Shown piece after piece: positions 34,101 to 40,100 of a stretch of 64,000 nt of DNA. Origin of the DNA: Escherichia coli (lineage in GTDB: Bacteria > Pseudomonadota > Gammaproteobacteria > Enterobacterales > Enterobacteriaceae). Each line of letters begins with the position of its first letter. Within the stretch, counting starts at the first letter, position 1. Position numbers: made by a program. Location: assembly GCF_045037415.1 (NCBI RefSeq), contig NZ_CP173438.1, one strand, 5' to 3'.

Positions 34101-37100
34101 CCGATAACCCCATGGGGCTGTACGCGATTTATATTGGCAAGTTGTATGCCATCCACGGTACCAATGCCAATTTTGGTATTGGGCTCCGCGTAAGTCAGGG
34201 CTGTATTCGTCTGCGTAATGACGATATCAAATATCTGTTTGATAATGTTCCTGTAGGCACTCGTGTACAAATTATTGATCAGCCAGTGAAATACACAACG
34301 GAACCGGATGGTTCAAAGTGGCTGGAAGTTCATGAGCCGCTGTCGCGCAATCGTGCAGAATATGAGTCTGACCGAAAAGTGCCATTGCCGGTAACCCCAT
34401 CTTTGCGGGCGTTTATCAACGGGCAAGAAGTTGATGTAAATCGCGCAAATGCTGCGTTGCAACATCGATCGGGAATGCCTGTGCAAATTAGTTCTGGTTC
34501 AAGACAGATGTTTTAAGAGCGTTGGTAATTAGAAAGTAAAAAGCCTGCTCGAAAGCAGGCTTTTTTGAATTTGGCTCCTCTGACTGGACTCGAACCAGTG
34601 ACATACGGATTAACAGTCCGCCGTTCTACCGACTGAACTACAGAGGAATCGTGTGAACGGGGCGCATATTAATGGCAGTGCATGGTGATGTCAAAGGGTG
34701 AAATGCATTTTTTTGTTTGTTTGCTGACAATTTCAACAAAGTGGTGAGCTTTCAATCTTATTGGGTAATGAACCATCGTGGTGCATACCCCCCTTTTATA
34801 GGGCAGGTGAATGCGACTGCTGATAAAAAGGGCCAATGACGAATCTATCATAATCTCTTATTTGACAGTTGGTTAGCTTGCGCATCAACGCTAAAATAGA
34901 ACTGGCAAGCATCTTGCATTCTGGTTGTAAGTAATGGCGGCACTTGGGCCGATTCTTAAAAACCGGAGGCAACATGAACTTCAGACGCCTGAAATACTTC
35001 GTAAAAATTGTAGATATTGGTAGCCTGACCCAGGCTGCTGAAGTATTGCATATCGCACAACCAGCGCTCAGCCAGCAGGTTGCCACACTGGAAGGTGAGT
35101 TAAATCAACAGCTTTTGATTCGCACAAAACGGGGCGTTACGCCAACAGGCGCCGGAAAAATTCTCTATACCCATGCACGGGCCATTTTACGTCAGTGTGA
35201 GCAGGCCCAACTGGCGGTGCATAACGTTGGTCAGTCATTATCGGGGCAAGTCTCGATTGGCTTTGCGCCAGGAACCGCTGCGTCATCCATCACCATGCCC
35301 TTATTACAGGCGGTTCGCGCTGAATTCCCGGAGGTCGTTATCTATCTTCATGAAAATAGTGGTGCAGTGCTTAACGAAAAACTGATAAATCACCAACTCG
35401 ATATGGCGGTGATTTATGAGCATTCCCCTGTGGCTGGGGTATCCAGTCAGGCTTTGCTGAAAGAAGATCTTTTCCTGGTAGGAACTCAAGATTGCCCGGG
35501 GCAAAGCGTTGATGTTAATGCTATTGCGCAAATGAACCTTTTTCTCCCCAGTGATTACAGCGCTGTTAGACTTCGTGTTGATGAGGCTTTTTCCCTACGG
35601 CGGCTCACGGCAAAAGTCATTGGTGAAATTGAGTCTATTGCCACGCTTACCGCAGCGATTGCCAGCGGCATGGGCGTTGCAGTATTACCTGAATCGGCTG
35701 CGCGTTCGTTATGTGGCGCAGTAAATGGGTGGATGTCACGCATTACCACTCCTTCAATGAGTCTCTCTTTGTCCTTAAATTTACCCGCCAGAGCAAACTT
35801 GTCACCACAGGCACAGGCAGTGAAAGAGTTGTTAATGTCAGTGATTAGTTCTCCAGTGATGGAAAAAAGGCAGTGGCAATTGGTGAGCTAAGCGTTATAT
35901 CGGGATGGAATAAGATGCGGGTTTTTATTATTTGTTATGCCGGGCATTAGACTTTAACAATAACGGGATATCTGAACTGCCCGGAGTTTACCGTGAATTT
36001 CCAACAACTAAAGATAATCCGCGAGGCTGCACGTCAGGATTACAACCTGACAGAGGTTGCGAATATGCTTTTTACCTCACAGTCAGGCGTTAGCCGTCAT
36101 ATTCGGGAACTGGAGGATGAACTTGGCATCGAAATATTTGTTCGACGAGGTAAGCGACTGCTGGGCATGACTGAACCGGGCAAAGCATTACTGGTCATTG
36201 CAGAACGCATTCTGAATGAAGCCAGTAATGTTCGTCGGCTCGCAGACCTGTTTACCAACGATACGTCTGGCGTTCTCACTATTGCAACGACGCATACTCA
36301 GGCACGTTATAGCTTGCCTGAGGTCATTAAAGCTTTTCGCGAACTTTTCCCGGAGGTTCGGCTGGAGCTAATCCAGGGTACACCACAGGAAATTGCGACG
36401 TTGTTGCAAAATGGCGAAGCTGATATTGGTATCGCCAGCGAGCGTTTGAGTAATGACCCGCAGCTCGTCGCCTTCCCGTGGTTTCGTTGGCACCATAGTT
36501 TGCTTGTTCCACTCGATCATCCCTTGACGCAAATTACACCGTTGACGCTGGAATCAATAGCGAAGTGGCCGTTAATTACTTACCGACAGGGGATTACGGG
36601 GCGCTCACGCATTGATGACGCATTTGCCCGCAAAGGTTTGCCGGCAGATATTGTATTAAGTGCACAGGATTCTGATGTCATTAAAACCTATGTTGCTCTT
36701 GGGCTTGGGATCGGATTAGTTGCCGAACAATCCAGCGGCGAACAAGAGGAAAAGAATTTAATCCGCCTGGATACGCGGCATCTTTTCGATGCTAATACTG
36801 TCTGGTTGGGACTGAAGCGAGGGCAACTTCAGCGTAACTATGTCTGGCGCTTTCTGGAACTTTGTAATGCAGGACTGTCAGTTGAGGATATCAAGCGCCA
36901 GGTGATGGAAAACAGTGAAGAGGAAATTGATTATCAGATATAGCAAAAAGCCCGCTATAAAAGCGGGCTTTTCAGAAATTTGGCTCCTCTGACTGGACTC
37001 GAACCAGTGACATACGGATTAACAGTCCGCCGTTCTACCGACTGAACTACAGAGGAATCGCTGTTGAGGCACATCTTAACGGCGAAAAATATTTTGTCAA

Positions 37101-40100
37101 ACCCGATTTTTAAATTTCCCAACTGTTTGCCGTTTCTATCAACAGTTTGTTGCATTTGCAGACAATTTGTTGGCGAAAATCTTTGCAGCTTTGCTGATTC
37201 TCCCTCATCATTTGAAATGTGGTTTCACTTTCTGCAATTAAGGTCGGCTTTGAATATCTCCTCTGCTTTACGCCAGGTTGTTCACGGCACTCGCTGGCAC
37301 TCTAAACGCAAGAGCTACAAAGTGTTGTTCTGGCGCGAGATAACCCCGCTTGCTGTTCCTATCTTCATGGAGAACGCCTGTGTCCTGTTGATGGGGGTCC
37401 TGAGCACTTTTCTGGTCAGCTGGCTGGGAAAAGATGCGATGGCCGGCGTGGGGTTGGCGGACAGCTTCAATATGGTCATTATGGCTTTTTTTGCAGCTAT
37501 CGATCTTGGTACTACTGTCGTTGTAGCATTTAGTCTCGGTAAGCGAGATCGACGACGAGCGAGGGTGGCGACGCGGCAGTCATTGGTGATCATGACGTTG
37601 TTTGCCGTACTGTTGGCAACGCTAATTCATCATTTTGGCGAACAAATTATTGATTTCGTCGCGGGTGATGCCACGACAGACGTTAAAGCACTGGCGTTGA
37701 CTTATCTGGAGCTGACCGTATTCAGTTATCCAGCAGCTGCCATCACTCTTATTGGTAGCGGGGCACTTCGTGGTGCAGGGAATACGAAAATACCGCTACT
37801 GATTAACGGTAGCCTGAATATTCTTAATATTATTATTAGCGGCATATTGATTTACGGCCTTTTCTCCTGGGCGGGACTGGGATTTGTCGGGGCTGGGTTG
37901 GGTTTAACCATTTCTCGTTATATTGGCGCAGTTGCAATTTTGTGGGTGCTGGCGATTGGTTTTAATCCTGCGCTAAGGATTTCGTTAAAGAGCTATTTTA
38001 AACCGCTGAATTTTAGCATTATCTGGGAAGTCATGGGGATTGGTATTCCAGCGAGTGTCGAATCAGTGTTATTTACCAGTGGTCGGTTATTAACCCAAAT
38101 GTTCGTTGCCGGGATGGGGACCAGCGTTATTGCCGGAAATTTTATCGCGTTCTCAATTGCGGCTCTTATCAACTTACCCGGAAGTGCGCTCGGTTCTGCT
38201 TCTACGATCATTACAGGCCGAAGGTTGGGGGTAGGGCAGATAGCGCAAGCAGAGATTCAGTTGCGGCATGTGTTCTGGCTGTCCACTCTTGGATTAACGG
38301 CCATCGCCTGGCTAACGGCTCCCTTTGCCGGGGTTATGGCATCGTTTTACACCCAGGATCCACAGGTTAAACACGTCGTTGTGATTCTGATTTGGCTAAA
38401 TGCTTTATTTATGCCTATTTGGTCCGCCTCATGGGTGCTACCCGCTGGATTTAAAGGTGCTCGTGATGCCCGTTACGCCATGTGGGTTTCGATGTTGAGC
38501 ATGTGGGGTTGTCGGGTTGTAGTCGGTTATGTGCTGGGAATCATGCTTGGCTGGGGTGTGGTTGGTGTCTGGATGGGAATGTTTGCCGACTGGGCTGTGC
38601 GGGCCGTGCTGTTTTACTGGCGAATGGTTACTGGACGTTGGCTATGGAAATACCCTCGATCCGAGCCGCAAAAGTGTGAAAAAAAGCCAGTTGTGTCGGA
38701 ATAAACGACAAAATGCAGATTATTTCAGCAAACGATTTCAAATTTAAAAAACAGGCTTTGACATTGTGGGTGGGCATCGCTAATATTCGCCTCGTTCTCA
38801 CGATTCCTCTGTAGTTCAGTCGGTAGAACGGCGGACTGTTAATCCGTATGTCACTGGTTCGAGTCCAGTCAGAGGAGCCAAATTTTAGTTTTGAGACATC
38901 TCTATGAGTCTCAGGACAGTTAAAAAATAAAAATTATTTTTACCCGGTCACTTTGTAAAAAAGTGGCCGGGTTTTTGATTTCTGTGTTTCGTGCGCTTAA
39001 TCGAGTCTCACGCTTCAGTGAGCAAATTGCCCCTCCCCAACAGACATCACGATTCACAAGGTCAAAAATTCTGTTCCATGAAGTACCGTACAAAGATAAA
39101 GAGAAAAATGCCTTATGCGGGATGTAGCTGTCGCGTCTTTATCGGGAAACTATACGTAATTGCCACTTTGTCTTCGGTAATCAGAAAAAGAAGACCTGCC
39201 ATTTTAATAAATATTATTTCTCTGGGAACGGGGATTTTTTATAAGCAATATGACGAGTTAAACATTATATTTTTATAAGGATTATATGAGATTAAAGAAA
39301 TCTGCCATAAAGACAGATTTCTTTAACATATAATTAGAGATTTGCGACGTTATGATAAACTTTTTGTACATCGTCGTCATCTTCAAGGGCATCAACAAGC
39401 CCTTCAAAGATTTCTAAATCTTCTGGGGAAAGCTCAACTTCAGATTGAGCAATCATTTCTAATTCTGTTGTTGAGAACTCAGTGATTCCAGCTGCTTTTA
39501 GCGCCGCGATTCCTTTATGAAGGTCAGTAGGTTCAGTATAAATAACAATATTACCTTCTTCTTCAGTTACATCACGAACATCAACTTCAGCTTCAAGCAA
39601 AATTTCAAAAATATGGTCAGGGTCTGTTCCTTTAAATACAATCACACCCGTATTGTCAAACATATAGCTGACAGAACCTGCCGCTCCGATATTGCCGCCT
39701 TTTTTATTGAAAATTGTGCGAACGTTAGCAATCGTACGGTTAACATTTGAAGTTAATGTCTCAGCGATAATCATTGAGCCATTAGGACCAAAGCCTTCAT
39801 AACGTCCCTGCACGAACGTTTCATCTCCGCCGCCTTTGGCTTTATCAATTGCTTTATCAATAACGTGCTTTGGAACTTGTGCTTGTTTTGCACGTTCAAT
39901 AACGAATTTTAAAGATGTGTTTAATTCTGGATCGGGTTCACCTTGTTTGGCAGCAGCATAGATTTCTACACCGAATTTTGCATAAATTTTAGACGTTGCA
40001 CCGTCTTTAGCCGTTTTTTTAGCAACAATATTGGCCCATTTACGTCCCACTGGAATGATCTCCTCGAAAATTTATTTACATTACTGGTAAATCGTTAACA

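Follow-up and report, generated by a model that had tools for sequence, protein, structure and literature searches.

Three unoccupied tRNA-Asn genes and an asnT-bound HPI in an Escherichia coli chromosome

The HPI of E. coli has been described at asnT in a form where a unique deletion at the fyuA border removes the repeat, and at asnV in strain ECOR31 (Schubert 2009, PMC2606025). Three identical asn tRNA genes, lying in the same 4309-bp region as the one considered here, have been reported in connection with the pks island (Auvray 2021, PMC8209727). For Yersinia pseudotuberculosis, PMC7545054 and PMC8209727 cite Buchrieser 1998 for an HPI that can use each of three asn tRNA genes as its insertion site. 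Published work already covers the asn tRNA cluster and its use as attB by HPI and pks, as well as the invertible 4309-bp region and the way in which the HPI became fixed at asnT when its right repeat was lost. The practical value of the present analysis lies in annotation, with little weight as discovery.

The tRNA-Asn genes and their att cores

The window analysed here is a 64-kb stretch of an E. coli chromosome which is ST131-like. ARAGORN detects exactly three tRNA-Asn(GTT) genes in it: asnV (34572..34647, minus strand) between ldtA and nac, asnU (36981..37056, minus strand) between cbl and yeeO, and asnW (38805..38880, plus strand) between yeeO and yeeN, each placed as in K-12. Every one of them scores 72.6 bits against the Rfam tRNA model (RF00005), with a cloverleaf carrying the anticodon GTT, and they are pairwise identical at 76 of 76 positions, as is the asnT gene of a near-identical genome when matched to each of the three. 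The gene order ldtA-asnV-nac-cbl-asnU-yeeO-asnW-yeeN follows K-12 synteny, by which the names and order given in the initial annotation are right. Its statement that three identical tRNA-Asn genes lie within 4.3 kb also holds, coordinates included, the distance from asnV to asnW being 4309 bp (34572-38880). As for described RNAs other than tRNAs, an Rfam search of positions 33500-40500 returned just a sub-threshold match to manA-II (29 bits, E 0.077, where the gathering score is 100), which we put down to chance.

The three genes would be separate transcription units, each running from a sigma-70-type promoter of its own to its own intrinsic terminator. A consensus scan places promoter-like sites at 34666..34694 for asnV (minus strand, TTGACA-17-TAATAT, 10/12, kept in K-12), at 37073..37100 for asnU (minus strand, TTGACA-16-TAAGAT) and at 38758..38786 for asnW (plus strand, TTGACA-17-TAATAT), all of them presumed to function as promoters. 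Predicted intrinsic terminators sit directly 3' of asnV (34538..34565, minus strand; -17.2 kcal/mol, z -5.3, with a U-run) and of asnU (36945..36973, minus strand; -19.5 kcal/mol, z -5.6, with UUUUUGCU as the U-run after it). The 3' trailer of asnW contains a hairpin (38888..38917, plus strand; -14.4 kcal/mol, z -3.0) which has no U-tract and would not count as a terminator by the usual criteria; K-12 has it too, its pairing preserved despite a GG/AA difference. The terminator scan places the asnW terminator proper, with a 13-bp stem and a U-run, at 38942..38977 (plus strand; hairpin 38942-38972), beginning 62 nt past the gene, and the 60-nt stretch containing it (38926-38985) has a folding energy of -24.3 kcal/mol (z -6.7). 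The earlier description of a strong terminator hairpin after each tRNA gene is accurate for asnV and asnU, and applies to asnW only loosely, given this first hairpin and the distance to the terminator.

The 17-bp core CCAGTCAGAGGAGCCAA is the 3' terminus of all three genes, with exact matches at 34571..34587 in asnV (minus strand), 36980..36996 in asnU (minus strand) and 38865..38881 in asnW (plus strand). These are its three occurrences in the window, one per gene, where 0.12 would be expected by chance, and a scan of the window allowing up to 3 mismatches found no fourth or degenerate copy marking island borders. Positions 30749-44783 are collinear with K-12 (97.6%, with 3 gap openings only), and base-level K-12 alignments of asnV, asnU and asnW with both flanks of each contain no insertion. 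Together with the core scan, these alignments show that the 3' flanks of the genes are ancestral chromosome, with neither an int gene nor a second att core. All three sites are empty of islands in the window, as the initial annotation had proposed. In mechanistic terms, CCAGTCAGAGGAGCCAA would be the attB core for the P4-type tyrosine integrases of asn-targeting islands (HPI/ybt ICEs, pks), whose attP would recombine with it to restore an intact tRNA gene at attL, beside int, and to leave the 17-bp repeat at attR.

The HPI, its deleted border and its location

The fyuA-proximal part of the HPI, delimited from the annotation of near-identical genomes, occupies about 47248..64000 (minus strand) and continues past the window end; it comprises fyuA (48250-50271), ybtE, ybtT, ybtU, irp1 and the start of irp2. 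It is joined to the interior of yeeJ, a remnant with internal deletions (44803..47247, minus strand; blastn against K-12) which is annotated as a pseudogene in SA186. According to blastn, the junction falls at 47241..47247: homology to the ICE of strain AR_0011 stops at 47241, within the first ICE ORF after fyuA, and homology to K-12 yeeJ starts at 47247, 219 nt into the gene. It is marked by a chimeric ORF and carries no direct repeat, the 17-mer being absent from its vicinity with up to 3 mismatches allowed. The first 219 nt of yeeJ and the asnT-yeeJ spacer are missing, and the complete loss on the fyuA side would also have included the rest of the ICE and attR.

For the int-proximal border, which the window does not reach, we relied on public genomes identical or near-identical to the window rather than on the source genome. 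Strain 463 matches the final 25 kb (39001-64000) at 100% identity, and its mtfA-asnT-int segment lies about 14.7 kb past the equivalent of the window end, with the HPI integrase 161 bp after the tRNA-Asn gene that follows mtfA. SA186, which is 99.97% identical to the window, has the same arrangement (mtfA-asnT-int-ybtS). Since the tRNA-Asn gene beside int follows mtfA, it is asnT. The 17-bp asn repeat, which the initial annotation had suggested looking for at the int-proximal border, is present within asnT of strain 463, and SA186 is alike in this respect; an int end beside a non-asn locus was not found in either genome. The earlier placement of the HPI beyond yeeJ holds, and these genomes support the reading that it occupies asnT, the fourth tRNA-Asn copy, in the source chromosome too.

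The HPI of the window is of the fixed form, bound to asnT, that has been published for E. coli. Its fyuA-side border, attR included, is deleted, so that it would be unable to excise and would stay fixed at asnT, leaving the three empty sites open to incoming asn-targeting elements; both this immobility and the recombination chemistry outlined above we infer from established knowledge. With three free docking sites, this HPI-positive, pks-negative chromosome of the ExPEC type could therefore still gain pks or a ybt ICE of the ICEKp/ICEEc1 type. Taken as a whole, we regard it as nearly certain that three of the four identical asn genes are empty attB sites and that the HPI is fixed at asnT with a deleted fyuA-side border, and nothing that contradicts this explanation was found in the analysis.

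Inversions, occupancy in other genomes and alternative readings

The asn genes, being empty and of mixed orientation, could alternatively be regarded as recombination substrates that reshape the 4.3-kb segment time and again, perhaps with the HPI integrase of this strain, still intact and left without an attR, acting via attL x attB. If this were true, the exchange would lead to inversions, or would remove the HPI and with it the ~40 kb that separate asnT from asnU or asnV. Inversions bounded by asn genes do occur: yeeO alone is inverted in 32 of the 5,426 complete E. coli genomes that make up our survey sample, and the whole 4.3-kb segment is inverted in the presence of pks and in SE15. A cause coupled to the integrase seemed suggestive in UPEC129, LR-58-1 and TC24, and was rejected on account of PigCaeca_1, LR-06 and Santai, which are without any asn-targeting island. 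In these three genomes yeeO is inverted while all four asn sites are empty, and therefore the integrase is not required and plain homologous recombination explains them. We consider this alternative improbable as an account of the locus.

It is still less likely that one of the sites is not virgin, the 62-nt spacer and hairpin downstream of asnW being, for instance, the relic of a former island arm. Of the three genes, asnW alone is without a terminator directly 3' of it, and the first ~20 nt of its spacer resemble the HPI left end by eye. However, the local-alignment score of the asnW downstream flank with the HPI left end is 13, compared to a mean of 13.4 for shuffled sequences (302 of 500 shuffles score as high or higher), and that with the pks left end is 18, compared to 13.8 (40 of 500). 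The similarity is no better than that of shuffles, the spacer is kept in K-12, which is island-free, and the window has no extra att core, so this reading is largely refuted.

The survey also bears on whether the sites empty here are used elsewhere. The asnT-int junction is found in 2,469 of the 5,426 genomes (~45%, HPI-type at asnT), and the exact yeeN..yeeJ'-fyuA..irp1 arrangement of the window in 2,063. The empty-site junction is kept in 4,666 genomes for asnV, 5,180 for asnU and 4,979 for asnW; the ancestral junction is thus not intact in ~14%, 4.5% and 8%, respectively, with inversions and insertions both counted. Chimeric junctions number 211 at asnV, 87 at asnU and 367 at asnW, which are upper bounds for the HPI because pks-type left ends (~87% identical to that of the HPI) cross-match, and the use of these queries for exact HPI counts was dropped, as they mix both types of island. 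These occupancy figures may nevertheless be a handy reference. Individual genomes show the islands in place: AR_0011 carries a 64.6-kb ybt ICE at asnV, with exact 17-bp direct repeats on both sides, an attR consisting of the 17-mer and a flank equal to the asnV downstream flank of the window, and an empty asnT. Islands of the ybt type lie at asnU in PEB17-18 and AR_0114, and asnW holds a ybt island or pks in other complete E. coli genomes. The description of the three genes as potential attachment sites is well founded in this respect, and their cores probably act as attB for asn-targeting islands (HPI/ybt ICE, pks), as judged by sequence and natural occupancy.

That only asnT is competent for the HPI in E. 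coli, the other three genes being identical but never used, would fit the fact that most HPI-positive E. coli have the island at asnT (the 2,469 junctions above; PMC2606025), but it is refuted by the natural ybt islands at asnV, asnU and asnW and by the HPI of ECOR31 at asnV (PMC2606025), and has next to no probability. According to PMC2606025, asnT dominates because the island was acquired once and then spread through homologous recombination of the flanks. Equally implausible is an HPI which integrated at another asn copy and was moved by a rearrangement between asn genes: such inversions are known in E. coli, but the whole window is oriented as in K-12, int follows the tRNA gene with mtfA upstream in the genomes identical or near-identical to it, and on the fyuA side the HPI runs into yeeJ, the gene that naturally lies downstream of asnT.

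Comparison with known systems

The preferred reading, with three empty sites and the HPI at asnT, can be set against five described systems. In K-12, asnV (b1989), asnU (b1986) and asnW (b1984) are the same 76-nt genes with the same neighbours, orientation, promoters and terminators; the asn flanks are 97-99% identical to those of the window, with scattered SNPs only, and K-12 has no HPI at asnT. The HPI of Y. pseudotuberculosis, as far as the citing papers describe it, resembles that of the window in that a single integrase has several identical asn genes open to it as attB, and is mobile with both repeats kept, whereas the HPI of the window has lost attR. The pks island (Auvray 2021, PMC8209727) targets the asn cores present in the window, and has a left end ~87% identical to that of the HPI; compared to pks genomes such as UPEC129, the window has no pks and retains a non-inverted, K-12-like orientation. 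The ICE-type HPIs (ICEEc1 of ECOR31 at asnV and the AR_0011 element) share the integrase-side end, the ybt core and the 17-bp core, and the ~1 kb after fyuA is 98.5-99.7% identical between the AR_0011 element and the HPI of the window. They retain T4SS, mobilisation and cargo genes as well as attR, at asnV, while the HPI described here is without these and asnV is empty. The fifth system is the common asnT-fixed HPI of E. coli (Schubert 2009, PMC2606025), which shares int beside asnT and the ybt/irp/fyuA core. In both, the fyuA-side repeat is gone and the deletion extends into the backbone; no differences were found between them, and in the window base-level mapping puts the junction at 47241/47247.

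Identity and state of the three tRNA-Asn genes

According to ARAGORN the 64-kb window contains exactly three tRNA genes, each a tRNA-Asn(GTT): asnV (34572-34647, minus strand), asnU (36981-37056, minus strand) and asnW (38805-38880, plus strand). Each scores 72.6 bits against the Rfam tRNA model, they are pairwise identical at 76/76 positions, and they span 4309 bp from first to last base, in agreement with the three identical genes within 4.3 kb described in the initial annotation. The names and order given there are correct, since annotated matching genomes and K-12 show the same synteny (cobUST-ldtA-asnV-nac-cbl-asnU-yeeO-asnW-yeeN-amn-shiA-...-yeeJ remnant-fyuA-ybtE-ybtT-ybtU-irp1). 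An Rfam search of 33500-40500 returned no other credible RNA; a manA-II match over the asnW 3' end and trailer (38847-38977, plus strand; 29 bits vs a gathering score of 100, E 0.077) was taken as chance. The DNA is chromosomal E. coli sequence: 5,424 of 5,426 complete genomes match an 8-kb query that contains the three genes. Identity of the window is 99.97% with the ST131-type strain SA186 over 13000-61001 and 100% with strain 463 over 39001-64000. No collinear alignment with strain 463 was found for 1-2264. Positions 1-~31000 form an IS-riddled genomic island beside cobU, where K-12 has CP4-44. It contains ibrA/ibrB-like genes, an intact TonB-dependent receptor, a yaiO/yaiP-like cluster, a PfkB kinase/amidotransferase/DMT/phosphotriesterase cluster, and copies or remnants of IS66, IS100, ISL3, IS4 and ISEc20.

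All three genes are unoccupied, as had been proposed. The 17-bp core CCAGTCAGAGGAGCCAA, the tRNA 3' end serving as attB, occurs three times in the window (0.12 expected by chance), once per tRNA-Asn gene, and no further copy was found there with up to three mismatches. Island-free K-12 and the window are collinear across 30749-44783 (97.6% identity, three gap openings), and base-level alignment of each tRNA with both flanks reveals SNPs only.

A consensus scan predicts a separate TTGACA / TAATAT-type promoter for each gene. The strong terminator ascribed to each tRNA is predicted directly after asnV (hairpin and U-run, -17.2 kcal/mol, z about -5.3) and asnU (hairpin and U-run, -19.5 kcal/mol, z about -5.6). 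After asnW, the first predicted hairpin (38888-38917, plus strand; -14.4 kcal/mol) has no U-tract, and the actual terminator is predicted to be a 13-bp stem with U-run at 38942-38972, starting 62 nt past the gene. This is the sole point, and a small one, on which an otherwise confirmed observation needs correction. The first hairpin, in the trailer upstream of that terminator, is conserved; in K-12 the base of the stem has AA for GG and still pairs (U-A rather than U-G), and the hairpin might be a processing signal. The 62-nt spacer was also considered as a relic of an island arm, but it resembles the HPI and pks left ends no more closely than shuffled controls do, and K-12 has the same spacer.

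Anchoring of the HPI at asnT and loss of its fyuA-side border

The int end of the yersiniabactin island (HPI) lies beyond the window and was read in strains 463 and SA186. Strain 463 has mtfA, a tRNA-Asn (L005 4410-4485), the integrase (4647-5909) and ybtS-ybtX-ybtQ-ybtP-ybtA-irp2-irp1, with the 17-mer inside the mtfA-side tRNA-Asn, equivalent to ~14.7 kb past window position 64000. SA186 agrees, its junction being ...GAGCCAA|TTTTCTGTTTTCATG vs ...GAGCCAA|ATTCTAAAAATTCGC in K-12. The asn repeat expected at the int-proximal border is therefore present within asnT, the proposed integration site, and in neither strain does the int end adjoin a non-asn locus. The mtfA-asnT-integrase junction occurs in 2,469 of 5,426 genomes, and the exact 25-kb arrangement of the window in 2,063. 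The dominance of asnT has been put down to a single acquisition followed by spread via homologous recombination (PMC2606025).

A 17-mer search found no asn direct repeat at the fyuA end, and this junction was mapped against a complete ICE-type HPI, that of AR_0011, and K-12. HPI/ICE homology extends to 47241, within the first ORF past fyuA, and homology to K-12 yeeJ sets in at 47247, at a point 219 nt inside that gene; the deletion has therefore removed the remaining ICE, attR, the spacer between asnT and yeeJ, and the start of yeeJ. The HPI at asnT has been described with a unique deletion at its fyuA border that removes the repeat (PMC2606025). The junction is marked by a chimeric ORF of 250 aa (46851-47600, minus strand), whose first ~118 aa derive from the ORF after fyuA in the ICE-type HPI and are fused to internal yeeJ sequence; RefSeq labels it 'inverse autotransporter beta domain-containing protein'. 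The remaining yeeJ (44803-47247) is a remnant that has lost its 5' end, is broken internally around 46923/46925 and 46450-46478 when compared with K-12, and falls to ~92% identity.

Going by what is established for P4-type tyrosine integrases and the HPI, integration would proceed by attP x attB recombination at the 17-bp core, restoring the tRNA at attL and leaving the repeat at attR, and an HPI without attR would be unable to excise. The earlier interpretation is supported.

Use of the asn sites in other genomes

Junction queries for site state were run against 5,426 genomes. The ancestral empty-site junction is intact at asnV in 4,666, at asnU in 5,180 and at asnW in 4,979. A chimeric query (upstream flank, tRNA and HPI left end) is covered in 211, 87 and 367 genomes, respectively. 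For HPI these counts are maxima, as the left end of pks, another asn-targeting island, is ~87% identical over the first 70 nt of the attL arm (L002 16455-16524 vs L004 15848-15917) and cross-matches, as in Nissle 1917. Simple junction searches therefore cannot separate the two islands.

Verified cases exist at each site. AR_0011 carries a 64.6-kb ybt ICE with a VirB-type T4SS at asnV, with the exact 17-bp repeat on both sides and an attR flank equal to the asnV downstream flank of the window; its asnT is empty. In L010 7305-40521 this ICE encodes MobC beside the T4SS, and among its cargo are a restriction endonuclease, an 'ABC-three component system' and a retron Eco8 effector with its reverse transcriptase; yersiniabactin genes thus move together with defence genes. 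PEB17-18 and AR_0114 have ybt islands at asnU, LR-58-1 has an island at asnW, adjoining a tRNA with the asnW promoter, and UPEC129 has pks at asnW. The ICE of ECOR31 was likewise located at asnV (PMC2606025), and pks has been reported at asnW, asnV or asnU (PMC8209727). The term 'potential attachment sites' is justified, since each site is occupied in other genomes and in published strains.

Inversions bounded by the asn genes, which form inverted repeats with each other, exist in other genomes. The window has the K-12 orientation. A yeeO-only inversion (asnU-asnW segment, cf. window 36981-38880) has its junction in 32 of 5,426 complete genomes (among them L012, L014, L015 and L016). An integrase-driven mechanism is not needed, as all four asn sites are empty in three yeeO-inverted genomes that were examined; homologous recombination is enough. 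TC24, also with this inversion, has an integrase at asnV. The whole 4309-bp segment is inverted without an island in SE15 only (L013 1774-7226), the sole genome joining the asnW-promoter tRNA to the asnV downstream flank in this state, where the nac-cbl-asnU-yeeO block is inverted and yeeO partially duplicated. The same segment is inverted in the pks-positive UPEC129, and the 4309-bp inversion with pks has already been published (PMC8209727). Everything found here was already known.
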